From positions 2,758-66,757 of the IMG/VR virus record IMGVR_UViG_3300042691_021640: 64,000 nucleotides of DNA; one strand, given 5' to 3'. Below, one piece after another: positions 3-21,105 of this stretch (the first letter of the stretch is position 1; each line of letters starts with the position of its first letter). The DNA is from a virus (lineage: Duplodnaviria > Caudoviricetes). The notes under the pieces are model-generated. The model was not told the DNA's origin. It did not search any database and saw nothing but the letters and a program-made list of their open reading frames with translations. A program made the position numbers and the translations under genes.

Positions 3-3000
3 GAAAAAGAAATAAAGCAAATACTAATTGAACAAGCAGCAATTTCAGAAAAAATAAAAACAAGTTCAGCAGACATTGGTGCTAGGTTTTTAGCTTCTGG
101 ATTAGGGGTTTCTACTTCTGGCGCTATTACCGGAAGAAGAAGTGCTGGAGGTTATATTCCCGCTAAACAACAAGCTGCTGAAATGGTAGGGGCAATGCAG
201 GGAGGATATGCTCCCGGTAAAGTAGTTGCTGCTCCTAAATCAATTGGTGGAGTAATGAATACTGCCGAGACGGTTAAATATATTCCCGGCTTCGCTCAAC
301 CTTATATTTTGCCTCCTAAAGGTTCTGGCGCAGCACAAGATTTGGCATCAAAGTCGATGGCAAAGAATGGAATTAATCCTTATATGGCTAGAGGATTCGT
401 TCCTAATTTTGCTCCAAAACCCTTAACTAATCCTTCTTATGGAGATAATGATTGGTGGCTTGGATCTGGTTTATCTGCTTCCGTTTCTCTTTCTCAAATT
501 GCAACTGGAACAGCAGCAGCTTGGAGTCAAGACAAAGGTTTTTATAAAACCGATGGTTCTGCTTTTACTGCAAATGATTTAAATACATTTGTTAGAAGAG
601 GAGCTACTTATGGAGATATTAGAAGATATGTTCCAGATAGTATTTTAAAAGATGATCCAAGATGGAAATCTGGAGCTATATCAGATTTAAATGCCATAAG
701 ACGCGACTTTGCTCCCGGAAAGAAAATAGCAGGTCAAGAAAACATCAAAGAAGGAATTAGGCAAGTTTATGAGCCTTATGTTCCTCCTGCTTCAATGCTT
801 GTATTTGATTTAGACGCAAAGAATAAAGAGCTTTTTGCAGATGAAAATACCGGAGAAATATTAACCAAGAGAAAAGAAGACGGAAGAGCTTTTAAGATTA
901 AATCTTATGCTTTAAATTCATCTTCTCAAAATGAAGAGAAGACCAATCTAATTACACAAACAGCAGATTTCTCTCGTAGAGTAACAAAGCAACTCGCTAA
1001 TTACATTAGACCCGGAGAATATTCGGATGGTTCTGTTGATGACTTTTTTAATAGAGCGGGTAAAAATTATTCTGTTCTTGCTGGCACTATTTTCGAAGCT
1101 TCTACTAATCTAGCCGCTAATTACACAAGAGATCAAGCTGGTGGCGGTGGTGGGGATTTCGACGTAATTGGAGGAAATATTGGAAATGTAAGACAATTTT
1201 TCCCCGGATTTGGAGACCAGTATGGAGATTATAAATTAAGAAACAATGATGACGCTGTAAGATCGTTTATTGGCAAAGTTAAGAAGCGATTTGCGCCGCA
1301 AATGGCCGAGCATTTTAAAGCTCAAGAAAAAAAGGTAGGTCAACTCAGCACTGGATTTTCAAAAGGTTTTATTCCTAATTTCGCTCCTCAACAAATGGAC
1401 TTTGATTGGTCAGGTGGAGTAGCCCCTGCTCCTGTACCTGTCCCAGTTCAAATTGATGAACCAATGGCAATTGGAGAAAGAAGCGGATCTTCTTTATTCA
1501 TAAAGCCAGACGGAACTTTAAAAGTTTCTTTTTTACGCAGTACAGAAGGAAATCCTTTGTTTTCTATAATCAAAGGTCTTAAGAAGGGCATGATTAAAAA
1601 AATTGATGCTGGTGCTATTATTGGACCTAGAGTTCCAAATCTTATCACTGGATTAAAAAATGTTCTTCCTGATTTAAGAAGAAATAGTCCCTTGATTCCC
1701 TCTTCTATTCCTATTGTAGGAATGTTCTCTCCTAAAGAGTTAATGTCAAATCTTTATAAGGATAGAGCTGAATTACAGTATTCTCTTGATAAAGATTCTT
1801 TAGACCAGATTAATAAATACTTAATTCCAAAAGGATTTGAAGTTCAAAAAGGTGGAGCGCCAAATAGATATGACGACTTTTCAACAATTGATAAATCCAC
1901 TGGACAAGCTGCTACGTTTTATAATTCGGAGGACAATGTGTTTTTGCCAGAGTCTTTTTCGATGAATAGCTACATGCTTAAAAAGATAAAAACCATACCC
2001 GGAGTTAATTTAAATTTAAAGAAGAGAAGAGAAACAGGTTCTTATGGATACAATCGTGAAGATTTTTCAAAATTAAGAAAAGCTTTTGAAGAAATGGGTA
2101 TTTTATCGACTTCTCCAGAAGGTAAAGCTACTTGGCAAAACCTGTCAGATAATGGTTATGGAGAATATGTAAGATTAGAAAATCTTTATCCTAATGGTCT
2201 TTCTAAGGGTTATATTCCCAATTTTAATCCAATTAAAGAAGCGATGGGAAGAGAAATGGCTGCTGGTTATTCTTCTTCTCAAGTTAGAATAGGTCAAAAT
2301 AGTAAATTAAAAACAAGCTTTAACCCAATGGGATTGGGCGTTTATAATTCTACAGAAGGATCTCTTAATAATGGAATTGGTTTGGCAGAGAAAGCTGGTA
2401 TAAATCCCAAAACAAAAGGAATGTCTGCAAGGGGACATATCCCTAATTTTGCTGAATTTGGTGGATTAGATCTTTTTGCTGTGACTAGTTCTCTTGCTGC
2501 ATTGGCATTTAGTGCTAGAGATTTCAACACGACACTTAAAGAATTAAAAAATGGCACAAAACAAGTAATAGACGATAATACAAAAAGCGCAGCTAGTGCC
2601 AGTAATGCAATTAAAAAAGCAAACGATGACTTGGATAAAATTTTAAAAGATCAGAAGGCCGCAGTTAAAAAACAAAATGCAGCAGTTGCCGCTGAAATTA
2701 AAAAAACGTTTTCGAACATTAATCCTACAACTTTAAAAACTATTGGCGGTAAAGGCGCTGTCCCAATGAGTCTTGGCGGTAGTATGCTTACAGCAGCAAA
2801 TACTGCACAAATTCAAAGATTAGAAGAGCTAAGAAAAGAAAAACAAGAAAATGCAAAAAAAAGAAAAGAAACAGAAGACAAAGCTAGAGCAGACAGAGAA
2901 CAGGTAATTAAAGAAAGTCTAGCGACACAAAAAGAAGCAGGTGAAAACATTAAAGCTGCTCAGGCTGGCAAACTTGGAGCAATGCTCTCACGTTTAGGCC

Positions 3001-6000
3001 CATCAGTTGGTATAATTGGTAGCACATTGGCTAACGTTGGCGCTCAATTTGTTCCTGCTGAAAATAAAAAAACACAAGCAGGTTTATCTGGTGCTGGTGA
3101 CGTACTTTCTTTAGCAGGTACTGGCGCAGCATTTGGACCAGTGGGAGCAGCAGTTGGAGGTGTTTTAGGATTGGGAGTAGCAATTAAAAAAATTGCAGAT
3201 GCTGACGCTGAACAGGCTATTGATAAAATAAGCAAAAGCTTAGACATTACAAAAGAAAAGGCTTCTGCTTTTTCTGGCGCTGCTCAGAATTATGCGACTT
3301 CATTAGAAAGTTTGCAGAACGCTCTAAATGATCCTAAAGCTCAACCTCAAGCTTTATTAAAATTCCAAACAGCGATAACTGATTCGCTTTCTTCTATTCC
3401 TGAAGAATTTAGGGGTAAAGTATTGGCCGCAGGAACTGATATTACTAAAGTGTCTGAAGCTATTGCTAAAGTAAATAAAGAATTTGCAATTTCACAAGAA
3501 AATCTAGAAAGACAATTAGCAATTACTAAATTAGTTAATAGTAAAACTGGAATCTTCAGCGGGAATACTTTAAATAAAGCTGATCAAGATCAATTTACTA
3601 GATTATTTACTCAGTCTATTAACCCAGAAAAAATATTGTCTAATTTCAAAGGTGGCGCAGGAGAATTTGAAACTTTCATAAATCAATTAAAGCCTTTGGG
3701 AATTAAGCAAGAAAGCTATAATATTCCGGGCAATCAAATGGGCGCAGCTACAACATACACAGCTTCAGTAGTAAATAAAGAAGCTTTAGCAGATATTAGA
3801 TCTCAACTAGAATCAAAAGGAATCTTTGGTGCAGAAATAGCCGATGCATTTGAAAAGACTTCTAAAGACATTAACCCAAAAAATCTTATAGCTCTTTTTG
3901 ATGCTATTGAAAAATTTGGTAAAGGAGTTTTTAGCGCAAGAGAGGCTGGACAAAATCTTGTAGAAATTCAAAAACAAAACGTTGAAATATCAAGAAAGAG
4001 CGCTCAAGTATTAAAAGATTTAAATCAAAAATACGAAACTCTAAATATTAATCTTTCTAATCAAATTGAAGCTGAAAAAAATAGAGCAGCTACTCTTAGA
4101 GATTTGAAGAAAATCGAAGCAGAAGGCGCAGTACAATTAGGAACCGCTAGAGCAAAAGGGGCATTAAATTTGGTTTCTCCTTTTATGACAGAAAGATCGA
4201 AGTTTGAAGCAGAATCTAATTTAGAAAATATCGCAATTCAAAATAGAATTAATGCTGAAAATAGATCCGTTTTAGATAAAACTTTATCTTCTTTTACAGA
4301 TACTATTACTAAAAAGGCAGATGAAATAAGATCGAAAGCATTGCCATCAATAACAGATTCAAGCAAAACTGAGACAGAAATAACAAAAGAACTAAATGTA
4401 TTTAGCACAAATATTCAAAAAATTTCTCCTTTAATATCTAAGTCTTTACAAGATATAAGTGCTGGTGGCAACATAGAAACAATCAAAGATACTCTGGTTA
4501 AATCAATCACAGACTCGGGAATATTTAAAAAACCAGAAGCTGATTTAATAGCAGGAGAATTGCAAAATACTTTCGAAGGGATGCTTAATGAGTTAATAAA
4601 AATTACTCAACAAGGAGATTACGACAGAGCTATTCAAAAAGTTAGCGCTGATTATCAAAAAAGATCTTTGGCTTTGTCAGAAAAGCTTAGTTTAGCTGGG
4701 GGCGCAGCAGCTTTAGGTTCTACTGGTCAAGTAGGAGTTTCTGAAATGTTTGATAAATTGACTGAGTTAACTTCTCTGCTTGGTAAAAACGTAAGATCAG
4801 GAAATGATATAGAAAAAGGCTCTGGTGTTTTTAGATTATTAGATACTCTTTCTAATCAATTTAATATTAGAGGCGCTGGAATTGGCTCCGAATTAGCTCC
4901 GTTACAAAATATATCAATAAGGGCTAGAGCAGCACAATTGCAAAAAGAAGGAGCAAGAGGCAGAGAATTAACTAATATTGCTTTAATTGAACAAACCGGA
5001 AGAGGAATAGAGGAAGGGGGCGCACTAGACAAGGCGTTTAATAAATTAAGTGAAGATTCACTAAGTGTAGCAATTGATCAAATAACTTCTCAGTTAAAAC
5101 TTGAAAATATGGGTACTTATTTCGATTTATTAGCTCAAGAAAGTCAGTATTTAAATGAGCTAACAAAACAGCAAACAGAGATTTTGGCAAAACAAGCTCC
5201 AGATATTACTAAGACTTTTACAGACGTTACTACTACCCAAGTTGGGGCGAAATTGGAATCTCTTAATATCAATTTAGTTGCCGCATTGAAAGAAATAAAT
5301 GCTACACAAAATAGAATTGAGTTAAATAAAGATATACAAAATTTATTACCTGTTTCGTCTGTTGCGACCCGAGAAGCCGCACTAAAAGAAATTAAAAATA
5401 ATCTTGATCGCTACAACTCTTTTAAATCATTTAATATTTCAGGAGAGAAGTCCTTAGAAGAAAGGCTTTTAACAGGAAATCCTGCTGATAATAGCCCATT
5501 AGAAACAATCGCTGACGAACTCTTAATAATAGCTAGTAATTTCAAAATTCCTGTTGCTAACTTAGTGCTACTCTTTAATAAATTAAATCAAAGTTTTCCC
5601 GGTGGTAATAGTGGAGCTTTTAATGCTTCTGCTTCTTCAGCGGTCTCTTCTAATCAATCACCATATAAATCTTTTGGCTTCGGAGTTCTGCCAACAGGAG
5701 TAGCTCCTATAGCAAAACCTCAACCTTTAATTGAGGCTGAGAAAGCCTTAGCTGAAACTCAACGAAAGATCCAAGAAGCAAAAAATGCTAAAATAGCAGA
5801 GATTAATAAAGTATATAGTGAAGGCAATAAAGCTCTTGCTGATCAGTTATACTTAGAAATGCAAATAAATGATCGCAGAAACGAAATAACGCAACGTTTA
5901 GCATCTAACGAAAGGGAGCTAGACATATTATACAATTCAGAATATGGCGATACTTTCTTCAAAGAAGAAAAAGCAGCCAAAATGAATGCGCGTATAGAAG

Positions 6001-7442
6001 ACAATGCTAGACTTGGAAAAGTCGATATAGGAGCCATAACAGAAAAGAATACAGAGTATAATAGAGCAGATTTTGCCAAAGATACTGGTCAACTAATCGA
6101 TACTTTCCAAACTGATTTCAAGTCTGGAATTGCTAGTGCATTTGGTGAAGCTATCAAAGGCACAAAGACTCTAAAGGACGCATTTAGAGACATGTTCCAA
6201 GGCATCTTAAACAGAATGCTTGATAAGTCTTTAGAAATGGGCGTTGATGCTTTATTTGCTTTTGGCAAGTCTTACGCTCAAAGCGCAAAAAATGGAGGCT
6301 TAATTAAAGGCTACAATTCTGGAGGTATGGTCACTGGGGGCTCTGGAATGAAAGATGATGTACCTGCTATGATGAGCGGCGGCGAGTACGTTATCAAGAA
6401 GTCTTCTGTTAATAAATATGGCGCTAATTATCTAAGGGCTTTAAATGGCGGTCTCATTCCTAAATATGCAACTGGAGGATTCTCTATAGGCCCATTGCAG
6501 AATGAATTCTTATACAATGATCCTGAGCGCCCAACTTCTGGAGAATACGCAGTAGACTCTAGATTGTCAGCAATGGCTCTCTCTGACGAAAACAATCCTC
6601 AAAATAGAATAAGAGAAGATCGTTTTAATAAGTTAGATCAATACTTACAAGACCGAGATCAATTCGAAAGAGATAAAAAACAATCTCTTAAGAATTATAG
6701 AAATCAAGTAAATAGCACTTTCTATTCAGGTCTAACTGCTGCCGCTGTCCAATTAGGTGCTGCTGGATTGACAATGGGAGCGCAAAAATTAAATGCAAAG
6801 CCCAAGTTTTCTAATATTCCCGGAGCAGGATTAGAACCCGGAGGTGCAGGATTTAGTCAAGATCAATTAAATGCTCAATACGCAAGATATGGAAGAGCAA
6901 ATGGCGGTTATATACCTAAATTTGCTGGCGGTGGATACACAGGCAAAGACAATATCCCTGCCTTATTAATGGGTGGCGAGTACGTTATGAATAAAAAAGC
7001 TGTCGATATGTACGGCAGAGACTTCATGGGTCAATTGAACTCTGGCAGTCTTCCTAAGTATGCTAGTGGAGGGATGGTTGGTACAAGTTACACTGGTCAA
7101 AATACTCCTCAAGACAGTGTAGAAGAATTGGTCGCTGCTCTCAATACTTTAAATGAAAACCTTTCAAAGGACACAGGAATAACTCAATCTGAGTCTGGCA
7201 AAATTTCAGCCGCTGGAGTCACTCAAGAATCTGGAATGTCTGTAGTAAATAACATTTCAATCAACATGACTCAAGGCGGAGAAGTTACTTCTGAGGCTAC
7301 TGCTTCTACCCAGCAAGGTAAAGATGCCAATCAAAACAACATTCAAAACAATGCCAAACTTGCTGAATTACTTAGAAGCAAAGTTGTTGAAGTCTTGGTT
7401 GAGCAAAAGAGACCCGGAGGGTTACTTTACGCTAGTAGATAA
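3..7442 (+). CDS. Tail tape-measure protein, 5'-truncated (frame open from the window start; at least 2479 aa)
   Basis: Frame has no stop from nt 3 (EKEIKQIL...) into the listed ATG at 183. Long A/K/E-rich helical body with a Gly/Ala-rich hydrophobic stretch (GAAFGPVGAAVGGVLGLG). Two C-terminal copies of the TMP-type motif D.(V/I)PA.(M/L).GGEYV....V..YG. Repeated G(F/Y/H)(I/V)PNF and GG.IPK(Y/F)A.GG motifs. Lies next to tail-tip genes. Confidence 0.88.
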   Translation, partial: EKEIKQILIEQAAISEKIKTSSADIGARFLASGLGVSTSGAITGRRSAGGYIPAKQQAAEMVGAMQGGYAPGKVVAAPKSIGGVMNTAETVKYIPGFAQPYILPPKGSGAAQDLASKSMAKNGINPYMARGFVPNFAPKPLTNPSYGDNDWWLGSGLSASVSLSQIATGTAAAWSQDKGFYKTDGSAFTANDLNTFVRRGATYGDIRRYVPDSILKDDPRWKSGAISDLNAIRRDFAPGKKIAGQENIKEGIRQVYEPYVPPASMLVFDLDAKNKELFADENTGEILTKRKEDGRAFKIKSYALNSSSQNEEKTNLITQTADFSRRVTKQLANYIRPGEYSDGSVDDFFNRAGKNYSVLAGTIFEASTNLAANYTRDQAGGGGGDFDVIGGNIGNVRQFFPGFGDQYGDYKLRNNDDAVRSFIGKVKKRFAPQMAEHFKAQEKKVGQLSTGFSKGFIPNFAPQQMDFDWSGGVAPAPVPVPVQIDEPMAIGERSGSSLFIKPDGTLKVSFLRSTEGNPLFSIIKGLKKGMIKKIDAGAIIGPRVPNLITGLKNVLPDLRRNSPLIPSSIPIVGMFSPKELMSNLYKDRAELQYSLDKDSLDQINKYLIPKGFEVQKGGAPNRYDDFSTIDKSTGQAATFYNSEDNVFLPESFSMNSYMLKKIKTIPGVNLNLKKRRETGSYGYNREDFSKLRKAFEEMGILSTSPEGKATWQNLSDNGYGEYVRLENLYPNGLSKGYIPNFNPIKEAMGREMAAGYSSSQVRIGQNSKLKTSFNPMGLGVYNSTEGSLNNGIGLAEKAGINPKTKGMSARGHIPNFAEFGGLDLFAVTSSLAALAFSARDFNTTLKELKNGTKQVIDDNTKSAASASNAIKKANDDLDKILKDQKAAVKKQNAAVAAEIKKTFSNINPTTLKTIGGKGAVPMSLGGSMLTAANTAQIQRLEELRKEKQENAKKRKETEDKARADREQVIKESLATQKEAGENIKAAQAGKLGAMLSRLGPSVGIIGSTLANVGAQFVPAENKKTQAGLSGAGDVLSLAGTGAAFGPVGAAVGGVLGLGVAIKKIADADAEQAIDKISKSLDITKEKASAFSGAAQNYATSLESLQNALNDPKAQPQALLKFQTAITDSLSSIPEEFRGKVLAAGTDITKVSEAIAKVNKEFAISQENLERQLAITKLVNSKTGIFSGNTLNKADQDQFTRLFTQSINPEKILSNFKGGAGEFETFINQLKPLGIKQESYNIPGNQMGAATTYTASVVNKEALADIRSQLESKGIFGAEIADAFEKTSKDINPKNLIALFDAIEKFGKGVFSAREAGQNLVEIQKQNVEISRKSAQVLKDLNQKYETLNINLSNQIEAEKNRAATLRDLKKIEAEGAVQLGTARAKGALNLVSPFMTERSKFEAESNLENIAIQNRINAENRSVLDKTLSSFTDTITKKADEIRSKALPSITDSSKTETEITKELNVFSTNIQKISPLISKSLQDISAGGNIETIKDTLVKSITDSGIFKKPEADLIAGELQNTFEGMLNELIKITQQGDYDRAIQKVSADYQKRSLALSEKLSLAGGAAALGSTGQVGVSEMFDKLTELTSLLGKNVRSGNDIEKGSGVFRLLDTLSNQFNIRGAGIGSELAPLQNISIRARAAQLQKEGARGRELTNIALIEQTGRGIEEGGALDKAFNKLSEDSLSVAIDQITSQLKLENMGTYFDLLAQESQYLNELTKQQTEILAKQAPDITKTFTDVTTTQVGAKLESLNINLVAALKEINATQNRIELNKDIQNLLPVSSVATREAALKEIKNNLDRYNSFKSFNISGEKSLEERLLTGNPADNSPLETIADELLIIASNFKIPVANLVLLFNKLNQSFPGGNSGAFNASASSAVSSNQSPYKSFGFGVLPTGVAPIAKPQPLIEAEKALAETQRKIQEAKNAKIAEINKVYSEGNKALADQLYLEMQINDRRNEITQRLASNERELDILYNSEYGDTFFKEEKAAKMNARIEDNARLGKVDIGAITEKNTEYNRADFAKDTGQLIDTFQTDFKSGIASAFGEAIKGTKTLKDAFRDMFQGILNRMLDKSLEMGVDALFAFGKSYAQSAKNGGLIKGYNSGGMVTGGSGMKDDVPAMMSGGEYVIKKSSVNKYGANYLRALNGGLIPKYATGGFSIGPLQNEFLYNDPERPTSGEYAVDSRLSAMALSDENNPQNRIREDRFNKLDQYLQDRDQFERDKKQSLKNYRNQVNSTFYSGLTAAAVQLGAAGLTMGAQKLNAKPKFSNIPGAGLEPGGAGFSQDQLNAQYARYGRANGGYIPKFAGGGYTGKDNIPALLMGGEYVMNKKAVDMYGRDFMGQLNSGSLPKYASGGMVGTSYTGQNTPQDSVEELVAALNTLNENLSKDTGITQSESGKISAAGVTQESGMSVVNNISINMTQGGEVTSEATASTQQGKDANQNNIQNNAKLAELLRSKVVEVLVEQKRPGGLLYASR

Positions 7443-8951: not shown

Positions 8952-11900
8952 TTAGTAAGTTATTACTATTGATAGTTCTAAGGCTTGAATGTGAAAATTA
9001 TATAAAGGAAATTGATTTTTGAAATTTAAATGTGCAAAAGCTAAATTTTTTGGGCTCTTAAACTTCCAAAAGTATGGGTTAGTTATTGATGTGGTTGCAG
9101 CGTAACTGTTAATATAAGTATAATAATTTGCATAAGGTACATTTTTTAAGGTGACCTTAATAATATTATCATCTCCGGGAATTATTTGAGTCTTATCTGC
9201 TTCGCTGGCAATAAAGTCTTCTCCTGCGAAGCAGTATACTTTTATAGCCTTAGCCTTATTAACGTTTCCAATTGCGAAAGAAATAGATAAAGACTCGTTT
9301 TCTAAAACGGGCACTCCAGCATAAAATAAAGTATTTATACCATTGCTCAATGAATTAGTAGTTGCTTGATTTATAGCATAAATAGTAAAGTCTTTCGGTT
9401 CTCTATTTATAAATATCTCAACAGATTTGGTGCTAACTCCGAGTTCAGAAAAATTATTTTCAGGAGTTACATTTATAGCATTAAAAGATGAATTAAGTAG
9501 TCCATCATTTAATACATTATTAAATACTGATTTAGCGCTGGCTTCTGTGTTTGAAGTTGAGGCATTTACAGGGATTAAATAAGTGTTTATATTGTCAGGA
9601 ATCATGCTCTTTATATTGCCAGTAAATGTTGAGTTGTTTAATCTAGTAATAGATATGTCAAAGAATTCTTCGCCTCCTTCACCAAAAGAACTATTGCTGA
9701 TTTTTACTTTAGAGCTAAAGACGTTAGAGGTTACTAATTCTGATTCTACTCCTTTTAATAATTGCACAGGAGCAGCAGGGTCGGCAACTAAAGCTCTTGT
9801 GAAAATCTTATTTCCGTTTAAAACGTAAGCTCTCTTGCCTGTGGGTATTTTTGGAGATATAGAAGCATTAGGTATATTATCTCTATTCTGTAAAGAGAGT
9901 TTATAATAAGCCATAGTGCCATCTGGATCTGAAGATAAAACCTTATCGTCTTTACCTCCTGCGGATAAATTAGCATTTGTAGTAGGCTTGTAAATTACGC
10001 TTTTCCTAGATATCGCATAATTAGGAGAACGTAGAGTATTAACGCTAGTTTCAAATGTGCTTTCAGTTAATATTGTTTTGTTAAATGTAAAATGAAGATA
10101 TCTTGTATCCGCATCTTTTAACACTGATTCTAATGAGAAAGACAGAGGGGTTGATGACTCTTGTTTTATAATAATTGGGTTACTAATTTGAGCATAGTTT
10201 CTGCCTTGAATACTGTCTTTATCAATAAAACTAGAATAGTAATCTAAAATATTCCTTACTGTTCCTGCGTTTGAATTAAACTGCCAAGCGAACATCAGGG
10301 AGTCTACGGCGATTAAATAAGCGTTATAAGAAGTAGAATCAAAACCTTTACCATTGTCGTCACTTAAGTCATTAAAATTAAAGATCGCTTGGTTATTTGG
10401 TATGCTTACAAAATGAGAGTCAATTATCTCTTCGCCAGTTGCGTCATTAATTGAGAGAGGTGTGCCATCAGAATTATGATTTATTGAATTAACGCCAAAC
10501 TTGAAAGTGCTATTGCTGGGTATTAATAACAAATAAAATGCATTAATAAAAGAACTCGCTGTATCTTGCTGAATAGTAAATTTTAATCTATTTGATCCTT
10601 GGCTTGTAACAATAGAGTAGGTCGCTCTTGTGTCATTTAAAATTGCATTTAGAGAAGCTTTTAAATCAGCATCTTGATTATCATAAGTTACTAATAAAAA
10701 TCCATCTGCATTCTTGAATTCGTTTGAAGTAGACTTCATGCCAGAATCCGTAAATGTTCTCTTGTCTATAGCTAAAGAAAAGTCTCTATATCTACCTAAA
10801 ACGTTTGAAGTTTTATAATTATATATATTATCGTTAGTGCTGTCTTCGTCAAACGTTAAATACTCTTCCCAGCTTGTGGAGGAATTGAGATATTTGTCAT
10901 AGCTAGTAATAAAGGACTCTTTTGTATTTACTTTCTCAGGTATTATTACTATTCTATAAGGGTAATCAAGATTATTAAACTTGTTTGGATTCTTTATAAA
11001 TTGCAGGGGTATGTTAAACAATAAAGACTCTGAAGGTTTAATTGATTGAACTTGTGATGGTATTGAAGATTGAAAATACTCTGATTTTGTTAAAGTAATT
11101 GGAGATCTAAAGCTATAGGCTTTATTATTTACAGTAATAGAAGAACTTGTATTTACATCATCATAAGTAATTGCAATAATTGGAGAAACAAATGTTTCAT
11201 TTGAATTGTTAGAACTTGAAGCTTCAACATAAGACAATGGAGAACTGTTGTTTATATTTGTGCCGTAAATTCTTATGGAACCTTTTATTTTTTCTTTATC
11301 TAGTACAGTTCTTACATAGGATTCATAAATATCAATTGGCACAAACGTAAAATCACTAGAGCTATTTGGATTAAAATCAGATCCGTAGAATGCTTTGTTA
11401 AATATTTTAAACCCTATTGTAGTTTCTTTTATAGAAGAGTCGTAGAAAATTTCGACGCTAACTTTGCTCTGATCTATTACGCCGTTAGATTCTGCAACTC
11501 CAAGAGTAAATAAGGCTCTTAAAGGAGCAGAAGCTTCTGGTACTGGCGCTTTTGCTGGAGTGATATTGAGTCCAGATTCTATTTGGGCATATTTTAAGTG
11601 ATACATTTGGGAACCCATGACAGTGTAGCTACTTCCCTCTGTAGATTCTTGAATTCTAAATATTCTATAAAAATCATAATCACTATCTGTAGAGCCATTT
11701 AAATTGCCTGAGTTTTCCAAAGCCCAAGTTATTGATTTTGGAGACATTCCAGATGCTCCAGTAAAATAAGATAATCCAGTTACATTTAATCCAGAAGCCA
11801 TTACTGGTGCTAATCCAGTGATTCTTATAGAATCGTAATATTGACCAGTTATTAAGTTGCCGCTATTAATTATAAAAGAGTTAGTCAGCGGTTGCCTGTA

Positions 11901-14900
11901 TTCGTTATAATCAATATTGCTATTTACTGCTCCTGCAAAACTGGGGTCGAGATTATACTTAGGAGATAGTATTGTTAATTTATAGCTTTGATTTCCTGAG
12001 AAATTGAAATCAAGTTTTCTATCTAACGCCAATATGCCAGTAGTCGCATTAACGCCCCCAGAGATATTAATATTATTTAACCTTCCTCCTACTGTCTTGT
12101 ATTTTCTATTGTAATCATAAACCTTAATTACGTCTCCGGGTTTTAGATATACGCACTCTGGGCCAGATTCAAAAGATACGGTCTCTGTTTCATTATACTC
12201 TGATGCCAACAACCATCTGCCAAGTCTTTGAGCTTGACCTCTGCTGGTGCATCCAAAGGCTGTTAATTCGGTTTCTTTAAATCCAAATTTTCTAACCGCT
12301 TCAATATTTTCAACGTATTCTACTGCTGGTTTATAGAAATTATTTTTATCAATATAACGAACATATACAGCAGAGTTTCTGTCTTTTAGTGAAGTAGATT
12401 CGTAATTGAAGTTTCCATCAACAACATTAGAGTTAGTAAAAGAGTAAATAGGGGTCTCTTCTGGCATGTCATTTATAGCGTAAATGAATCCATTTGAGTA
12501 ATAAAACATTCCTCTAAATACTGATGCCATGTCAGACAATACTTTGAGAGCGTCATCTTGACTTTGTATATAAAGGTTACAAGTAAATCTTGGTTCTACT
12601 CCTCCAAATCCATCTGAAACAAGTTCATCGCAATACTTGGCTATTTGATAAAGAGACCATTTGTCTACATCATTTTCTGTAACATAATTACCTACTCCAT
12701 ATCTTTTATTCGTTAAGAGATCATAGAAGCACCAAGCTGGATTATCGGTCCACTCTTTATTAGTTTTAAATTCTCCATCCCAATAATCGTTTGATGTAGA
12801 ATAAGGTAAAACTCCCGCTACATCGTAAACAACTGTTTTCCTAGAAAGACCTTCTGAGAAAAGATTTCTTGCAAAAGCTTGAGTCAAAGAAAGCCTGTCA
12901 AAATCAATTTGATTTACTCTAATAGAATCAGCAAATCCTTGTATTTTGCCGCCGAATCCAGCGCCAGATTTGTCTGTAAATATTTCTATTTGATTATTAT
13001 TTGTTATAAAGTAAGAAGGTATAAATGGACCAGTTTTTGTATTTGCTGCATTATATGTTTGCCCAGCAGCGAGAGGGATAAGGACTTTAACCTGTTCTTG
13101 AGAAGAATCAAGAGTTATTGAAGTAGAAGACCCATCGAATGTTTTATGTGCGTCTAATTTGTTATAAGCATCTAAAGCTGCTTGAGAAATGGCGCTTATT
13201 TGTACTCTTTGATTTATTTCATTTTGAAAAGTAGCGTCTGAATTGGGCCTCCATAAAGCTCCTACGCAAAGAGTTTGGTAGCTGGAGTAATTAGCGATAT
13301 TTATATTGCATTGAATTTGTTTCTCAAGATTTACTAGAACATCTATTTCTGCATTTAGTATGTCTGGAAAGTATTCTTTAGTAAGTCTTCTTTCAATAAC
13401 AGGAACAAAAGTTGAAAACTTTCCTCCTGTCTGTTGTGAGGCTGCATTAAAATTGCAGTATATATATTTATAACAAGTTTCTGGTAAGTTGTTTATTTCG
13501 CCACTATAAGAGGTGTCTTCTTTAAATGTTATAGATTTTATTAAATAAAAATCTTTTAATTCTTGAGCTAACGCTTTTTCCCCTCCATCAGTCGTAAATC
13601 TTCTAACTGTAAAATAATCGTTTATCCAAGTTCTGTCGGATATATTTATGTTATTTACTTTAGCAGCGTTTGCGTTGTATGATATGTTTGGTTTGACTAC
13701 TTTTGGTAATGCATAAAAACTAATTCTTGTAAAAGCGTCTTTGAGTCTGGTTGTTGAATACCTTGTCGAATCTAATGCTTTCGTTATGGTGTATTTTTTA
13801 CTATCATTTGAAGAAATAATTGTGAGTATTAAACTTACATTTTCTCCAGATATAGTCATAGAAAGATTAAATTGATTATCTCTATGAATTAAAGTATAGT
13901 TACCGTTTGAAATGCTTGCGCTTAGTTTAATGAAAAAGTCGGAATAGAAGCTGCAAAATCCTTGATCTTTTAAAGAAAAATTAGATGGAACGTTCGAGTT
14001 TTTCCAATATCTTTGAGGTATTAAATCGAATTGATAGTAATCAGACGAAGCTAAGTTGCCTCCTGCGTAAGTATAGGCTTTTGTTGATTGACCATTAGCG
14101 CAAAGAGTTTTTAATGGCATTTTTAAATAAGTGCTTGCGCCTACATTAAGAACATTGATATTATAAGACCCACTTGTAGTCGTAGTGCTTATACTGTTTC
14201 TGGTTACGTTCCACTTGTTATTTAACCAGTTTCTTATCTTTATGCCGTCTGATTTAGACAAGGCTTTGTTGAAAACTAATATTTCAAATACGGTACATCT
14301 ACTAGTGGCTCCTGCTGAATTGATAGCTAATCCTTTTGGGGCGGCTACTGCAAAAACTGGTTTTGCGTAATAATTAGTGTTTTGCCAAAAAATATTTATA
14401 TCTTTTAGATTGTTTACGCTTGTTCCTGCTATGTAAGTATTTGCGTCATTAGAAGTGTCCCAGTAATTAGATCGATTGAATTGATAAAAATTAAGGGGCA
14501 TTACGCCATAGACTTGCGCTCCTATAACAAATGTGCTATTAAATTTAGCATCGAAACCTAAAACAAAAGAAGAAGGTGTGGTAGATGATGAAATTATCTT
14601 GTTTCTTTCTGCGCTTGTTGCGCTATCATGCCATTTGCATACTGTAAAAATAGTATAATTGTTATTAGCGTCAGAAAATGAGGCGGTTTCGGTTTGATAA
14701 ACGAATCTTACTTTTTGACTTGTCGTAAATGAAACTCCATAATTTCCATTGGGGCTTTGCTCTGAGTGGCTTGATCCATATGTTGGTCTAGCTGTAGTTC
14801 CAGCAGGAGATGCGTAAGTTCCATCTCCTAAGATACATTTTATAGTTGATCCAGCTACAGTATTGGGCCAACTAGTTACGGCTCCTGTTGAAGTGGTTAA

Positions 14901-16310
14901 GGAAGGATTACTCGCATCAAACTGAGCAATTAACCCATCTGTAATCGGAGGATTAACATTGTCAGAATTTGCATAAGAATTATTTTCTCCAATAAAGAAA
15001 TCTGTTGTTATTACTTTATCGGTTTTCTTAAATGAATTGCTTTCTGTAATTGAAAGAGGCGTAGTATTGCCGTAAGTCTTCGTTACTGGGTCATAATTAG
15101 CAGGAACTTTAACCTTTAGTAGCTTAACATCGTATGATCTTTCTGGTATTTTTGAGAAGTATGCGGCATTAAATTTAGAGGTTACGATTGCAGAATTAGT
15201 GTACCTGAATGAAGAAGAATAAATTTCAGTAATACTTTCTAAACTTATAAAAGAAACTCTTGAAGAATAAGTATCTTCTGGGCTAATTTTTAATACTGAA
15301 ATATCCCAACCTAACCAATTTTCATTTTCATTTAATGAAAGGAATTTAGAAGAAGTATCAAAGACAACTTGTTTAGCGTAGCCTTGAGTGACTTTTCCTT
15401 TTGATTCTATTTCGAATACTTGAGGAAACGAATCTACGTTAACTACTAGATCTTTTGCGTCATTAACTACTTTAACTTTATCTGAAGTCAAAGGAATAGT
15501 TGCAGAATTACCGTTGTAGCCTTCTTTATAAATTGGAGATATCCTAATTCTAATTTTAAAATTATGGCGTATTACAGAGCCTACTCCTGCATCTAGCGTC
15601 TTTCCATCGGCGAGTTCAACTTCTCTGGTTGAGGGGTCTAATGTAAAATTGCCATTAGCTTTATTTGCCGCAGTAACTCCTTCTATTTTTAATCCTTTTT
15701 CTACGGCTTCTAGGTCTTGATATTTCAAAGCAACATAAAGAGAAGAAACTCTAAAAATAAGAGACATCTTTTTGCACTCTCTATTAAGAATGCGATAGGT
15801 CTTTTGATAATCAAGAACATCGTCTTCAGTAGTAGCTAGTTGATTTGGTCCTCTTAATCTTTCTCCTATTGAACGAATATAAGAAACGTTGTCAAACTCT
15901 CCTCCTGATGAAGTGCCTACTGGAGTTCCATTTGTTACTTGGATATTTATTTGTTGGAAATTGTATTTATCTTGGCTATCTAAAAGGGGTGTTTGATTCC
16001 ACTGCACTGATCTTAAATACTTTGATTCGCCGTCGCTTCCTACCACTGATGGGTATTCATTATAAGTAACTTTTTTAAAACCTAGGTCTCCAACTTGGCC
16101 TGAAAAAAGATATTGTCCTTCAAGTAAACCTCCAATTGGTCCTTCTGACAAAAGATCTTTTACTTTGGCAAATTGATATACATTATAAGCAAGGCCATCG
16201 TAAACAAATCCCTCAACATCTTCATATGCAGCAGTTGGTGATGGGGCTTGACTTGCTGCGCCTCCGCCGCCAAAGCCTTTTATGTATTTGAAATCTTCAA
16301 AGTTATTCAT
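8952..16310 (-). CDS. Tail tip / host-specificity protein J (lambda gpJ-like, 2452 aa) with a large internal insertion
   Basis: Diagnostic WTDNPAWCFYDLLTNKRYGVG...DKWSLYQIAKYCDELVSDGFGGVEPRFTCN, AFGCTSRGQAQRLGRW, LKPGDVIKVYD, KDLLSEGPI.GL. Confidence 0.93.
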   Translation of the reverse strand: MNNFEDFKYIKGFGGGGAASQAPSPTAAYEDVEGFVYDGLAYNVYQFAKVKDLLSEGPIGGLLEGQYLFSGQVGDLGFKKVTYNEYPSVVGSDGESKYLRSVQWNQTPLLDSQDKYNFQQINIQVTNGTPVGTSSGGEFDNVSYIRSIGERLRGPNQLATTEDDVLDYQKTYRILNRECKKMSLIFRVSSLYVALKYQDLEAVEKGLKIEGVTAANKANGNFTLDPSTREVELADGKTLDAGVGSVIRHNFKIRIRISPIYKEGYNGNSATIPLTSDKVKVVNDAKDLVVNVDSFPQVFEIESKGKVTQGYAKQVVFDTSSKFLSLNENENWLGWDISVLKISPEDTYSSRVSFISLESITEIYSSSFRYTNSAIVTSKFNAAYFSKIPERSYDVKLLKVKVPANYDPVTKTYGNTTPLSITESNSFKKTDKVITTDFFIGENNSYANSDNVNPPITDGLIAQFDASNPSLTTSTGAVTSWPNTVAGSTIKCILGDGTYASPAGTTARPTYGSSHSEQSPNGNYGVSFTTSQKVRFVYQTETASFSDANNNYTIFTVCKWHDSATSAERNKIISSSTTPSSFVLGFDAKFNSTFVIGAQVYGVMPLNFYQFNRSNYWDTSNDANTYIAGTSVNNLKDINIFWQNTNYYAKPVFAVAAPKGLAINSAGATSRCTVFEILVFNKALSKSDGIKIRNWLNNKWNVTRNSISTTTTSGSYNINVLNVGASTYLKMPLKTLCANGQSTKAYTYAGGNLASSDYYQFDLIPQRYWKNSNVPSNFSLKDQGFCSFYSDFFIKLSASISNGNYTLIHRDNQFNLSMTISGENVSLILTIISSNDSKKYTITKALDSTRYSTTRLKDAFTRISFYALPKVVKPNISYNANAAKVNNINISDRTWINDYFTVRRFTTDGGEKALAQELKDFYLIKSITFKEDTSYSGEINNLPETCYKYIYCNFNAASQQTGGKFSTFVPVIERRLTKEYFPDILNAEIDVLVNLEKQIQCNINIANYSSYQTLCVGALWRPNSDATFQNEINQRVQISAISQAALDAYNKLDAHKTFDGSSTSITLDSSQEQVKVLIPLAAGQTYNAANTKTGPFIPSYFITNNNQIEIFTDKSGAGFGGKIQGFADSIRVNQIDFDRLSLTQAFARNLFSEGLSRKTVVYDVAGVLPYSTSNDYWDGEFKTNKEWTDNPAWCFYDLLTNKRYGVGNYVTENDVDKWSLYQIAKYCDELVSDGFGGVEPRFTCNLYIQSQDDALKVLSDMASVFRGMFYYSNGFIYAINDMPEETPIYSFTNSNVVDGNFNYESTSLKDRNSAVYVRYIDKNNFYKPAVEYVENIEAVRKFGFKETELTAFGCTSRGQAQRLGRWLLASEYNETETVSFESGPECVYLKPGDVIKVYDYNRKYKTVGGRLNNINISGGVNATTGILALDRKLDFNFSGNQSYKLTILSPKYNLDPSFAGAVNSNIDYNEYRQPLTNSFIINSGNLITGQYYDSIRITGLAPVMASGLNVTGLSYFTGASGMSPKSITWALENSGNLNGSTDSDYDFYRIFRIQESTEGSSYTVMGSQMYHLKYAQIESGLNITPAKAPVPEASAPLRALFTLGVAESNGVIDQSKVSVEIFYDSSIKETTIGFKIFNKAFYGSDFNPNSSSDFTFVPIDIYESYVRTVLDKEKIKGSIRIYGTNINNSSPLSYVEASSSNNSNETFVSPIIAITYDDVNTSSSITVNNKAYSFRSPITLTKSEYFQSSIPSQVQSIKPSESLLFNIPLQFIKNPNKFNNLDYPYRIVIIPEKVNTKESFITSYDKYLNSSTSWEEYLTFDEDSTNDNIYNYKTSNVLGRYRDFSLAIDKRTFTDSGMKSTSNEFKNADGFLLVTYDNQDADLKASLNAILNDTRATYSIVTSQGSNRLKFTIQQDTASSFINAFYLLLIPSNSTFKFGVNSINHNSDGTPLSINDATGEEIIDSHFVSIPNNQAIFNFNDLSDDNGKGFDSTSYNAYLIAVDSLMFAWQFNSNAGTVRNILDYYSSFIDKDSIQGRNYAQISNPIIIKQESSTPLSFSLESVLKDADTRYLHFTFNKTILTESTFETSVNTLRSPNYAISRKSVIYKPTTNANLSAGGKDDKVLSSDPDGTMAYYKLSLQNRDNIPNASISPKIPTGKRAYVLNGNKIFTRALVADPAAPVQLLKGVESELVTSNVFSSKVKISNSSFGEGGEEFFDISITRLNNSTFTGNIKSMIPDNINTYLIPVNASTSNTEASAKSVFNNVLNDGLLNSSFNAINVTPENNFSELGVSTKSVEIFINREPKDFTIYAINQATTNSLSNGINTLFYAGVPVLENESLSISFAIGNVNKAKAIKVYCFAGEDFIASEADKTQIIPGDDNIIKVTLKNVPYANYYTYINSYAATTSITNPYFWKFKSPKNLAFAHLNFKNQFPLYNFHIQALELSIVITY

Positions 16311-16311
16311 T

Positions 16312-17049
16312 TTATATATTATTAATTTGATCTTTTACGTCTACTGCCGTTGATTTAGTGCCGAGTTCAACATTATTAACAGATACTTCAACTGTTTGAG
16401 ATCCTATTTTCATCTTGCCGTAACCAATTGGTACAGGACCACCTTCTCCAAGAATGTTAGAAGGTCCGTCAAATAAGTAGTTTGGTTTGCTGCCATCTTC
16501 TTGAATCTTTCTAAAATCATCAAATTTTGGAGGAGACATCATTAATAGCGTGATTCCTGTTACGGCTAATCCGATACCTGCGCCGATTAGTGCGCCAGAC
16601 AAAATGGTTGCTCCCATTCCTCCTTGGGCTCCTGCCATGCCAAGAAATGTAACTCCCCCTGCTGCTCCTATACCTGAAGCAATTAATATAACTCCAAGAA
16701 CTAAAGCTAATACTCCTTTTGTCGTACTATTGCCGCCGCCTCCAGCGCCTCTAATAATTGGAACTATGTCTAGAGTTTCCAGCTTTTCATTTATCATTAC
16801 TAATTCAGAATTAAGAATGGACTCTGGTTTTTCTAGAGAAATACTTTCTGGATTCATTATTTCTCTTTTATTAACGATCACCTTGTACTCTACGCTTTTT
16901 TCTGCTGCCCCAATTAGATATTTCAATAACTTTCCCTTAGACAAAACCTGAATAGCTCGCAACGCTTCCTTTATGGAATTTACTTTTAATTTCCAATTTT
17001 CTCTTCCTACTTGCTCCGCTATTTCTCCGTGTAAGGTAATGTTAGTCAT
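16312..17049 (-). CDS. Tail assembly protein I (lambda gpI-like)
   Basis: N-terminal ubiquitin-like ITLHGEIAEQVG...SIKEALRAI, hydrophobic Gly-rich middle, NYLFDGPSN...GGPVPIGYG; sits between K and J. Confidence 0.88.
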   Translation of the reverse strand: MTNITLHGEIAEQVGRENWKLKVNSIKEALRAIQVLSKGKLLKYLIGAAEKSVEYKVIVNKREIMNPESISLEKPESILNSELVMINEKLETLDIVPIIRGAGGGGNSTTKGVLALVLGVILIASGIGAAGGVTFLGMAGAQGGMGATILSGALIGAGIGLAVTGITLLMMSPPKFDDFRKIQEDGSKPNYLFDGPSNILGEGGPVPIGYGKMKIGSQTVEVSVNNVELGTKSTAVDVKDQINNI

Positions 17050-17788
17050 AAAGGTTATGCCTCATTATATAAATTACCCATTTTTTGTGTTGGTTAGAAA
17101 GCTTTTCGATAAGAGAGATCTTATTTCCGGGGTGATGCAAAATCATATCTCCTCCAAGATAAATAGCGCAATGGATTGGGAAATCGAACCTTTTGGTCCT
17201 CATTATCAAGACATCGTTCTTTTTAAAATTAGAAACTTGTCTAAATCCATTATGTTCAAAGTACCTCTTTAAATAGTCGTCTTTTCCTTTTAAAGCTCCT
17301 TCTTCGTCTAGAAGTCTTTTACTTGCTGTCTCGTTATAGTCTTCTTCGGAAACATTATTTTTAAGAACTTCTAATTCTGGACAGAGATGAAGATTTAAAT
17401 CGTGTGCATAGTAGTCTTTTACTAGCCATAAACAGTCTGCAAAACCTAAAAGAAAAGGTCTTCCTTCGTATTGAATCTTATAACTATTGGGGGAATAGAC
17501 ATGAAAAGATCCGCTTTGCTTATTGTAAACAACACATGATAATCCTAATCTTTCAGACACAATTATATCTGCATCTGAAATATTATCAAAATCAATATGA
17601 GAATGATAGTAGCCAGCAACGTTAGACTGCCCATCAACATCCATCATGAACTCAGTGGCAGAGTTGATTAGATTTTGTTTCTTTTGGATCTCTATTCCAT
17701 TGTCTGTATATAATAGAAAACCACATACTTCGTTATTAGAAGTATTAGCATGTTCAATGATCTGATTTTTAAGTTCCTCTGTTAGCAT
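17042..17788 (-). CDS. Tail tip protein K-like, copy 2 (JAB/MPN + NlpC/P60)
   Basis: EVCG...YHSH.....SDAD JAB motif; GFADCLWLVKDYY and HCAIYLG...ILHH NlpC/P60 motifs. Confidence 0.88.
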   Translation of the reverse strand: MLTEELKNQIIEHANTSNNEVCGFLLYTDNGIEIQKKQNLINSATEFMMDVDGQSNVAGYYHSHIDFDNISDADIIVSERLGLSCVVYNKQSGSFHVYSPNSYKIQYEGRPFLLGFADCLWLVKDYYAHDLNLHLCPELEVLKNNVSEEDYNETASKRLLDEEGALKGKDDYLKRYFEHNGFRQVSNFKKNDVLIMRTKRFDFPIHCAIYLGGDMILHHPGNKISLIEKLSNQHKKWVIYIMRHNLYD

Positions 17789-18540
17789 AGCTCTTTATTT
17801 CTTGCAAAGCAGTATATTCTTCTTTTTTCTGCGTCTGTTAGTTTTTCAATTACTGATTTTTTATTTCTTGGTTGGTGCAAAATGTAGTTTTGTCCAAGAT
17901 AGATTCCGAAGTGAGAAGGGTAATTGTCGAAGTATTTAAATACTATTATATCGTGCTTCTTAGCGTTTTCTATGTCTTCAATTTTAATAAAGTTTTCTTT
18001 TTCGAAGAACTTGTCGAAATTTTGTGAGTCGCAAAACTCTGCAAGTTTGTGCTTTACGAAGTCTTCGTAGTTCTTGTCCCAATCTGCTCCTCTTTCGTAG
18101 TGAAAAATTTTAATGCCAAATTCTTGATTATAGTAATTCTCCACTATTGATAAACAATCAGATTCACCAATTACAAAATCTTTATCAATGTATTTATTAT
18201 AGTAATTTTCTGGAGAGTACTCTTCGAAAGAGTCTCTTTTAAGTATGTAAACTATATTTTTTAGGTTAAGTTTGTGACTTATCTGCTTGTCTAGCTCCGA
18301 AAAAGAATTGTCTTGTATGCAGTGCGAATGATAAATGCCAATTATTCTGCCGTGCATTGTCGCTTTTAGATAATCCATTTGACAAACGATAAACTCGTTT
18401 TCTTTGTCTTGAGCAGCGTTTCTGCATGAGAAAGCTTCTAGTTCATTTTTACTGTTTAAAAGTAAAACACCGCAGCATTCTTCAGGATTTTCCTTTAATG
18501 CGTGTGCTTTTATTTTTGCTTTTATTTCGTCCGAAACCAT
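17782..18540 (-). CDS. Tail tip protein K-like, copy 1 (JAB/MPN + NlpC/P60)
   Basis: PEECCG...IYHSHC....FSELD; GESDCLSIVENYY; HFGIYLG..YILHQP. Confidence 0.88.
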   Translation of the reverse strand: MVSDEIKAKIKAHALKENPEECCGVLLLNSKNELEAFSCRNAAQDKENEFIVCQMDYLKATMHGRIIGIYHSHCIQDNSFSELDKQISHKLNLKNIVYILKRDSFEEYSPENYYNKYIDKDFVIGESDCLSIVENYYNQEFGIKIFHYERGADWDKNYEDFVKHKLAEFCDSQNFDKFFEKENFIKIEDIENAKKHDIIVFKYFDNYPSHFGIYLGQNYILHQPRNKKSVIEKLTDAEKRRIYCFARNKELC

Positions 18541-19661
18541 TACAATGCTCCTCTATTATAATTAGATACTCCATAGAAGCCACCAAAAGGTAAAGCATTT
18601 TCTCCAAATCTTATTTTACAGCCTTTTACGCTTTTAGAACATTGATCAGCTATCCAATACTGCCCGTTTGGAGGAGGCGTGTCCATAGGAACATTTGTTT
18701 TAGCTACAAAGTAAAAATTAATATTTTTCTTATTAATGAAAACTACGTCTCCTTTGTTATAAGGCGTTGATAGTTTCCAAGATTCTATCTTGTTGGTTCC
18801 TACGGTCGTGCCAGAAAAGATTGGCATTTTTGAAATTATTTGATCATCTTCTGTGGCGCAAACAGGAGCTTTTGCTCCGCTAGAATCGCTTTTATTTGGT
18901 ATTGGAGTTATAGTGCCATGAATATCTTCGCTTAATTTTTCTTGATATTCATAAAGGCATCCTTCTCCTCTATACTGCCAAGGACAAATATAGCTTAGGA
19001 CTCTTCTCTTGGGAAGTTTAGCTCTGTCTAGATCTATTGCGCTTGATAATTCAAACTGAATACTATTCTTATTTTCAGAAGATTTTCTATCAAAATAATA
19101 AATATCTCTGGGAAATTCGCAGTTAGGATCAGGATCAAACCCTTCTGGTATAACCAATTTATCAGGAGACAGAGCAGACACTCCATCAGCTTGATAAAAA
19201 TTATTCCTATCAAGGAATTTGGCAAAAGTCCTAATTCTAGTGAACTTAGCGCCAATCAAATCTCCAAAATTAACTGTTCCTCTAAAGAGGCTAAACACAT
19301 CAAGCATGTCATCAGAAAAGCTTATTTGAACTTTGGGTTTTGGAAATACGCCTCTTGAAGCTAATTCAAATCCTTCTGTAGCAAGCGGGGCGGGTAGATA
19401 AGCATTTCCTTTCCAATAAATAATGTTCCTTCCAAGCTTTAGATTGTTATGGAGACGTATTATTTTATAATTAAAAACTCCATCATCTTCTCCCGGCAGT
19501 ATTATTTGAAAATTCTTAAGATTAACGACGAATTGGGGGTCTGTGTCAAAACCAATTTCAGTTAAATCAACTTCAAATAAAGAAATAATAGAAGAAGGTT
19601 CAAGCGAAAAGAACTCTTTATTTACTTTTAAAGCTGCATCTTTTTGTTGTTGAGTAGCCAT
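18540..19661 (-). CDS. Minor tail protein L (lambda gpL-like, Fe-S cysteines)
   Basis: IISLFEVDL, FTRIRTFAKFLD, ICPWQYRGEGCLY, DQCSKSVKGCKIRFG...PFGGF. Confidence 0.92.
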   Translation of the reverse strand: MATQQQKDAALKVNKEFFSLEPSSIISLFEVDLTEIGFDTDPQFVVNLKNFQIILPGEDDGVFNYKIIRLHNNLKLGRNIIYWKGNAYLPAPLATEGFELASRGVFPKPKVQISFSDDMLDVFSLFRGTVNFGDLIGAKFTRIRTFAKFLDRNNFYQADGVSALSPDKLVIPEGFDPDPNCEFPRDIYYFDRKSSENKNSIQFELSSAIDLDRAKLPKRRVLSYICPWQYRGEGCLYEYQEKLSEDIHGTITPIPNKSDSSGAKAPVCATEDDQIISKMPIFSGTTVGTNKIESWKLSTPYNKGDVVFINKKNINFYFVAKTNVPMDTPPPNGQYWIADQCSKSVKGCKIRFGENALPFGGFYGVSNYNRGAL

Positions 19662-19665
19662 AGTA

Positions 19666-20220
19666 TTATGCTGGTACTTCTTCGAACGTAGCTTTTATAG
19701 AAAAGTTATTGAAGAATGGATTAGAGGAGCCCCATCTTCTACAAACGAATAGTTTAGCATCTGTGGAAGCCACAGAATAAGGGGCGGATGGGTAATAAAT
19801 AAAAGCAGTCTTAGCAGATCTTGCGCTTAAAAAATGCAGAATAGCTGTGCATTCATCTAGAGTTAAACCATCAAAGTTTAAATCAAAATTAAGAAGATTG
19901 AAGTTAATTTGATCGCTCACTCTCTTTTCATAGCCGTCTCCATATTTGACTACGCTTACTTTTGGTTCAAAGTTGGCTTGAGTTTGATAAGAAGGCTTCC
20001 AGATAAAAAAAGGATAGTCTTTTTTCACTACTGGGTGTTGAAAGTAGCCTCCCCAATAAGCGTCTGAGTTAGAAATAACACTAGAATAAACTGGTGGATT
20101 ATTAGCGGGTACGGCAGCTTTAGCATAATAATACCGATTATCCGTATATACGATAATATCGTGTTTATTGTATACGCTGGAATTATTCCATGTACTAATG
20201 TTAAAAATGGAGCTAGACAT
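19666..20220 (-). CDS. Minor tail protein M (lambda gpM-like) with an N-terminal extension
   Basis: PKVSVVKYGDGYEKRVSDQIN...FDLNF...ILHFL...AF, KATFEEV; first gene of the M-L-K-K-I-J operon. Confidence 0.85.
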   Translation of the reverse strand: MSSSIFNISTWNNSSVYNKHDIIVYTDNRYYYAKAAVPANNPPVYSSVISNSDAYWGGYFQHPVVKKDYPFFIWKPSYQTQANFEPKVSVVKYGDGYEKRVSDQINFNLLNFDLNFDGLTLDECTAILHFLSARSAKTAFIYYPSAPYSVASTDAKLFVCRRWGSSNPFFNNFSIKATFEEVPA

Positions 20221-21096: not shown

Positions 21097-21105
21097 GGCA
21101 AAAGG

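Follow-up and report, generated by a model that had tools for sequence, protein, structure and literature searches.

Why should a phage tape measure protein (TMP) carry several unrelated, non-helical domains along its chain, and why should each of them end in the same short peptide? The question is raised by a 64,000-nucleotide (nt) stretch of a Caudoviricetes genome (IMG/VR virus record IMGVR_UViG_3300042691_021640, positions 2,758 to 66,757), which we refer to as the window. Nucleotides 3–7442 of its plus strand are a single open frame, open at the 5′ end of the window, that encodes the C-terminal 2479 residues of the protein. The full-length form, P0002, was retrieved by protein search; its 2976 residues match the window protein exactly from residue 498 on. 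Because the frame is open and 497 further residues precede it, the modular region lies at residues ∼545–1315 of 2976, and not in the N-terminal region of the TMP, where a first-pass annotation of the letters had placed it. We describe this region here as an array of modules that is almost certainly exchangeable among related phages, and we weigh what the modules and their peptide may do.

The junction peptide and the modules it delimits

The peptide G(F/Y/H)(I/V)PNF was located by translation and pattern scan at residues 131, 455, 736 and 811 of the window protein (nt 393, 1365, 2208 and 2433). With their flanking residues, the copies read ARGFVPNFA (copy 1, nt 387–413), SKGFIPNFA (copy 2, nt 1359–1385), SKGYIPNFN (copy 3, nt 2202–2228) and ARGHIPNFA (copy 4, nt 2427–2453), the last of which ends the array. 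A degenerate copy, AGGYIP (residue 48, nt 144–161), opens the first module, and in the relatives P0033 and P0037 the full G(F/Y)IPNF stands at that place (residue 546). All lie on the plus strand, and the four copies of (A/S)(R/K)G(F/Y/H)(I/V)PNF at 387, 1359, 2202 and 2427, with AGGYIP at 144, were found exactly where the annotation had put them. The composition of the protein predicts 0.00017 motif matches versus the 4 seen, and 20,000 shuffles of the protein gave 3 matches in total. A pattern scan of the 64-kb window found the motif in no other frame.

Homologue statistics given here cover the 120 homologues listed, and the pattern used to find motif copies in them fixed the G, P and N. All 120 proteins carry it, in 579 copies (2–12 per protein) that are spaced by 59 to ∼700 residues with no period. 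At the remaining positions, the first F is found in 78% of copies, I or V in 97%, the last F in 95%, a following A in 67%, and A or S two residues before the G in 79%. Among more distant IMG/VR loci, the motif is present in 53 of the 56 examined, and every examined locus with an intact TMP frame has it, at GC contents of 29–43%. These comparisons show protein-level conservation of the motif in relatives whose overall identity is otherwise only 13–30%. In three loci (L074, L077 and L081) the TMP frames are ∼2950 residues long, as are array-bearing ones, and contain only two motif copies, around the entry module; these loci may use a variant peptide or have no array.

When the homologues were cut at the motifs, the resulting 466 blocks clustered into 81 families, arranged in 75 distinct architectures. 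The general plan, from the N to the C terminus, is a PF10145 domain, an entry module, 1–10 variable cassettes, an exit module, a final motif and a hydrophobic and helix-prone body. In the window, the entry module (nt 162–386, ∼75 residues) is the most conserved part of the region, with invariant columns and predicted local distance difference test (pLDDT) values of 70–80, and in many relatives it is flanked by two full motif copies. It is followed by cassette 1 (nt 414–1358; family 1, 324 residues), cassette 2 (nt 1386–2201; family 6, 281 residues) and the exit module (nt 2229–2426, ∼66 residues; family 0, clustered as a block of 75). Exit modules in general measure 71–78 residues, belong to families 0 and 2, and stand last in the array in 105 of the 120 relatives. 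As the annotation had anticipated, the motif stays constant while the blocks between its copies vary; invariant helical blocks were not seen among the relatives.

The entry and exit modules are themselves related, which the annotation had also proposed. Profile–profile comparison of clean family alignments gives a probability of 95% and an E value of 2e-8 over 53–60 columns, with part of the score coming from the shared motif. This comparison supersedes an earlier one with mixed alignments, in which the motif alone aligned. By these profiles, two homologous modules of ∼80 residues, which we call bookends, stand at either end of the array. Peptide patterns drawn from the entry module found 230 IMG/VR loci.

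How the cassettes turn over is apparent from BLASTN comparison of the window gene with seven relative loci. Similarity to L001 and L030 stops at nt 413–415, just past motif 1, and is back at nt 2213. With L005, L009 and L018, similarity is lost at nt 1386–1387, just past motif 2, and returns at nt 2200–2208, at motif 3; with L031 included, the points at which similarity resumes around motif 3 span nt 2200–2217. Similarity to L010 starts at nt 1365, which is the first base of motif 2. The DNA identity is 89.6% between cassette 2 and L010 and 88.3% between cassette 1 and L005, versus 67–79% for later parts of those genes. Breakpoints at the motifs, together with cassette identities of 88–90% in genes that later fall to 67–79%, therefore indicate that whole cassettes have moved recently. 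The comparisons show that related phages gain, lose, duplicate and swap entire modules and that the junctions lie at the peptide, and we regard an exchangeable array within the TMP as very nearly certain. We also considered whether any TMP is split at a motif. The sole split seen among the loci (L071) falls 3′ of the array and resembles a frameshift.

Cassettes of the window and of its relatives

AlphaFold models were built for residues 50–470 (model 1, alignment A1) and 449–830 (model 2, alignment A2) of the window protein, each a two-part model. Both cassettes are predicted to be mixed alpha/beta, with mean pLDDT values of 68 and 61.5, and they belong to different families, in agreement with the earlier description of two unrelated, non-helical blocks. 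All of the motifs fall in stretches with pLDDT <50, between domains at pLDDT 70–90, which supports a place for the repeats in flexible linkers, one of the roles first suggested for them. Composition also sets the array apart. Pro, Gly and aromatic residues are commoner in its blocks than in the TMP body, and A, E, L, K and Q account for 31% of the array versus 44% of the helix-prone body.

The two cassettes keep different company. On its right, family 1, which always occupies the first variable slot, has 7 different neighbours; for family 6 the count is 7 on the left and 5 on the right. In a full HMMER search, family 6 was found almost solely in proteins of 2000–3900 residues, and searches for free-standing homologues of each cassette yielded only fragments on contigs of ∼1 kb.

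Fold and family searches gave no clear match for either cassette. For model 1, the best Foldseek E value is 0.6 and the best VIA-align Z score against the Protein Data Bank (PDB) is 4.1, to a non-nuclease. For model 2, the best E values are 0.085 (Foldseek) and 0.027 (BFVD), and the best VIA-align Z score of 4.8, to STAS-like chains, was judged not meaningful. A Pfam scan of the window protein at E values up to 1 returned nothing, and Pfam found no consistent family among 22 members of cassette 1. For cassette 1, the ESM Atlas held no usable match and a PDB profile search (alignment A4) returned only a 25-residue match to a lectin.

The residues that cassette 1 conserves are more informative. 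Across 22 sequences at 13–19% identity, G361, F364, E365, D387, F400, D409, K411 and K425 are invariant (nt 1083–1277), and the polar ones among them suggest an active site. The order E365 ... D387 ... D409xK411 matches the E ... D ... (D/E)xK pattern of PD-(D/E)xK nucleases, so that a minimal site of this kind in cassette 1 is possible; a check of fold and family, in which the model has a pLDDT of 68 and its best structural match is the non-nuclease at Z 4.1, gave no Pfam or PDB profile match.

In relatives, two enzymes can be named from Pfam matches within the array. P0032 contains a staphylococcal-type nuclease (SNase) at residues 662–755, in the first slot, between motifs at 627 and 828. 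P0033 contains a GNAT acetyltransferase at residues 1266–1320, between motifs at 1243 and 1426, which belongs to the much-copied family 3. Most other cassettes in the relatives scanned have no Pfam match.

A DNA search of cultured phages found no match. In genome collections, only nine contigs of metagenome-assembled genomes match the entry module (L113–L121), and these are probably binned phage contigs, which makes the host hint weak. Their labels are mixed: Flavobacteria-type (three), Halobacteriovorax, Neomarinimicrobiota and candidate-phyla bacteria, with one contig from deep Lake Baikal. Judged from the loci collected, the array is widespread in uncultured aquatic phages.

The tape measure protein and its neighbourhood

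The window protein is, by domain matches and gene placement, the TMP of a siphovirus with a lambda-like tip, because PF10145 and C-terminal matches to PHROG families and to phage Douge are found together with adjoining lambda-type tip genes. PF10145, the TP901-type tape measure domain (PhageMin_Tail), lies in the first 497 residues of P0002, upstream of the window, and at residues ∼118–320 of relatives by Pfam scans. PHROG TMP families match residues 2097–2177 of the window protein. In the protein search of cultured phages, TMPs of Bacillus phages (TP901-1 / SPbeta YomI-type) match at 26–29% identity over the PF10145 part only. The TMP body contains hydrophobic segments at window residues 819–837 (nt 2457–2513), immediately past the array, and at 1034–1065 (nt 3102–3197), a Gly-rich stretch that is a candidate for membrane insertion. 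An N-terminal PF10145 domain, a helix-prone body with hydrophobic segments and placement among tail genes are consistent with assignment to the TP901-type TMPs.

Three further peptides that resemble the motif, G.(I/L)PK(Y/F)A.GG, were found by pattern scan near the C terminus (nt 6450, 6906 and 7044, within 6450–7061, plus strand). They accompany a repeated module, DD.PA...GGE.V...LN.G (window 6300–7100), that is widespread in TMPs and occurs twice in gp16, the TMP of mycobacteriophage Douge, which the window protein matches twice. Copies 1 and 3 of the peptide close this module and copy 2 precedes its last copy.

The lambda-type tip genes M, L, K, K, I and J lie at 8952–20220 on the opposite strand and comprise M (PF05939), L (PF05100), two K-like genes, I, and a J of 2452 residues. 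This operon is convergent with the TMP gene, rather than 3′ of it on the same strand. The two adjacent lambda gpK-like genes (17042–17788 and 17782–18540, minus strand) encode one protein with JAB and NlpC/P60 domains and one in which NlpC/P60 only is recognisable. In the relative locus L005, immunoglobulin (Ig)-domain tail or head-decoration proteins lie upstream of the TMP. Beyond the tip genes are three paralogous genes of ∼270–360 residues (20278–22989), the last with an IPT/TIG domain, and after them a gene for a 1836-residue protein with no Pfam match (22991–28501, plus strand).

Possible roles of the modules and their peptide

Our preferred reading, to which we assign a probability of roughly 0.5, is that the TMP houses an exchangeable cargo array in which the motif acts as a protein-level signal. 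The variable middle of the giant TMP would consist of independently folding modules between the two homologous bookends, every module closing with (A/S)xG(F/Y/H)(I/V)PNF(A). Packaged in virions within the TMP, the modules would exit the tail together with it at infection, and ready-made proteins, such as the nuclease and the acetyltransferase of relatives, would thereby reach the host envelope or cytoplasm. Delivery of the modules to the host as virion cargo is the part of this account that we lean towards on balance, by analogy with other TMPs and from the nuclease and GNAT cassettes of relatives; injected cargo and processing sites had both been suggested by the annotation. Since the closing peptide is common to all modules, joining them in frame at that point would always yield a functional product, and this would account for such recombinants being the only ones seen.

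What the peptide itself signals is a more tentative matter. Our first choice is cleavage, suggested by comparison with phage T5. TMPs are trimers that fill the tail tube and are expelled at infection (PMC10038345). The T5 TMP, pb2, is cut after R1127, between a hydrophobic stretch and a peptidase domain, into pb2* and a C-terminal fragment that is retained in the tail (Linares et al. 2023, PMC10038345). Like the array-bearing proteins, pb2 is a TMP, and its cut at a defined site sets an enzymatic domain apart from the rest. Its cut site reads NSFVPR|AEGG; FVPR|AEGG has 3–4 residues in common with (Y/L)IPK(F/Y)A.GG and F(I/V)PNFA, and it resembles the C-terminal G.(I/L)PK(Y/F)A.GG copies of the window and, more loosely, the array motif. 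The two proteins differ in that pb2 has a single site, one fixed C-terminal enzyme domain and no exchangeable array. In the array, a cut at the peptide would separate the modules as the pb2 cut separates its enzyme domain, and candidate cutters would be the two gpK-like JAB / NlpC-P60 tail proteins or a host protease. In its strongest form, which we likewise hold only tentatively, the sole task of the peptide would be to signal cleavage, whether by a peptidase borne on the tail or by self-cutting at the invariant Asn. The TMP would then be a programmable effector polyprotein, a conserved carrier that frees an interchangeable set of enzymes into the host at infection.

Thermus phage P23-45 offers a second comparison. 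The N-terminal part of its 5002-residue TMP, gp96, holds an RNA polymerase; virions contain this enzyme, and it works in the host (Chaban et al. 2024, PMC10770324). As in the array-bearing proteins, a large globular enzyme precedes the membrane and helical parts of a giant TMP; the difference is that gp96 carries one fixed enzyme on a full-length chain, with no delimiting peptide and no cassette turnover.

Several observations weigh against delivered and cleaved cargo. The word effector is unsupported for the window phage because neither of its cassettes has a recognisable fold or family, and family 1, being confined to the first slot, may belong to the semi-fixed working parts of the protein and not to its free cargo. 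A BLASTP comparison of T5 pb2 with the window TMP aligned only coiled-coil parts, leaving the likeness of the cut sites without alignment support, and in the protein search of cultured phages the array was found in none. Because gp96 is uncut in P23-45 virions, cargo need not be cut at all. Space is a further difficulty. The tail tube lumen is ∼4 nm wide, and three copies each of ∼30-kDa domains must fit in it or pass through it, which argues for unfolded or elongated states or another location.

The second choice for the peptide, which we also consider doubtful when taken singly, is that it docks or clamps. It would bind a tail assembly chaperone, the lumen of the tube or the two partner TMP chains and so keep the globular modules in register within the tail, with all modules remaining on one uncut chain. 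The models, which leave the motif exposed as a linear peptide wherever modules join, fit this idea, as do the trimeric state of TMPs in the tube and the uncut gp96; the conserved, homologous bookends also resemble handles rather than cargo. However, motifs spaced by 59 to ∼700 residues without a period would be odd partners for contact with a helical tube.

Delivery as such is what a third, rather unlikely, explanation disputes. The modules could have a role in assembly or length, as spacers, plugs or chaperone-like parts, or could be cut off before assembly and act late in the producing cell. This would agree with the lack of a recognisable enzymatic fold in either window cassette, with the fixed slot of family 1 and with the searches in which the cassettes were not found as free-standing proteins. 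The nuclease and the acetyltransferase that relatives carry in these slots, however, would hardly be sensible as spacers, the fast turnover between close relatives is typical of conflict genes, and the eight invariant residues of cassette 1, including the polar E365, D387, D409, K411 and K425, suggest an active site.

It is very improbable that the motif is a mere DNA-level joint, kept by shared microhomology for recombination and with no role in the protein. The annotation had listed recombination joints among the functions of the repeats, and the breakpoints at motifs 1–3 bear this out as far as position is concerned. At the DNA level, the four copies in the window gene have only 6–12 identical bases in common, which makes a joint of DNA alone unlikely. 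Silent positions tell much the same story, since the Gly, Asn and Phe codons of the motif match background usage. The Pro codon is the exception and points to some constraint at a silent site, with CCT in 45 of 47 copies in the clade of the window and in 68% of 212 distant copies, versus 31% in other Pro-Asn pairs, where the motif copies counted are not independent samples. CCT-AAT in the motif places a TAA in the −1 frame. The amino acids, in contrast, are kept across lineages that differ in GC content (29–43%) and are otherwise 13–30% identical. The small number of shared bases and the background codon usage together imply that conservation of the motif reflects a requirement of the protein, with DNA contributing at most microhomology. 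The remaining explanation, an ordinary helical TMP in which the peptide recurs by chance or simple internal repetition, has in its favour only that repeats are frequent in TMPs and is refuted by the chance estimate, by conservation of the motif in the 120 homologues listed and by the varied architectures of unrelated, non-helical blocks.

The exchangeable cargo array that we prefer can also be set beside systems outside the tail. Polyvalent proteins, which occur in phages and conjugative elements, are large chains of unrelated conflict-type domains (nucleases, GNATs, kinases and peptidases) in many different arrangements, and their entry into the host together with the DNA is predicted; the paper that describes them contains 0 mentions of tape measure proteins and no repeated fence peptide (Iyer et al. 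2017, PMC5512222). The array shares with them unrelated domains in variable combinations within one chain, as seen in its 81 families, 75 architectures, SNase and GNAT. Their hub domains (zincin-like peptidase, MuF, ParB-like and others) were not found by Pfam in the window protein or in ten relatives. Sle1-type effectors of actinobacterial contractile injection systems are described as a TMP-like carrier whose functional domain varies between species and is experimentally exchangeable (PMC13277306). They differ in belonging to a cellular injection system and, as described, in having one functional domain per protein and no repeated delimiter.

Two further comparisons concern the border peptide and the carrier. 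In polymorphic toxins such as CdiA (VENN) and Rhs proteins (PxxxxDPxGL), a short peptide marks the border between constant and variable parts, and one variable C-terminal toxin is followed by an immunity gene. Here, by contrast, there are several internal modules in a virion protein, and the next genes, on the other strand, are tail genes and not an immunity gene. TMPs with embedded enzymes are an accepted theme, and those of the TP901-1 / SPbeta YomI-type carry fixed cell-wall hydrolases. The latter share the N-terminal PF10145 domain with the window protein, but lack a motif-fenced array and combinatorial variation.

Embedded TMP enzymes, TMP cleavage (in two TMPs, T5 pb2 and lambda gpH) and polyvalent proteins are thus already known. 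Literature searches aimed at the motif or at arrays of this kind turned up no paper, and an exchangeable array that follows such rules, with a single junction peptide throughout and a conserved bookend at either end, is not described in the papers searched. Its entry module is carried by at least 230 contigs in IMG/VR. Were the modules delivered to the host, this lineage would show that siphovirus tails can convey a diverse load of proteins, and it would offer dozens of unknown domain families that likely act in the first moments of infection. The junction peptide also provides a handle on how and why TMPs are cleaved, a question raised in recent work on lambda, and the array points to a natural site at which foreign proteins might be loaded into the tails of phages in laboratory strains. 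If the peptide does prove to be a cleavage signal, the array would be a phage counterpart of polymorphic toxins and a plug-in slot for delivery through a non-contractile tail.

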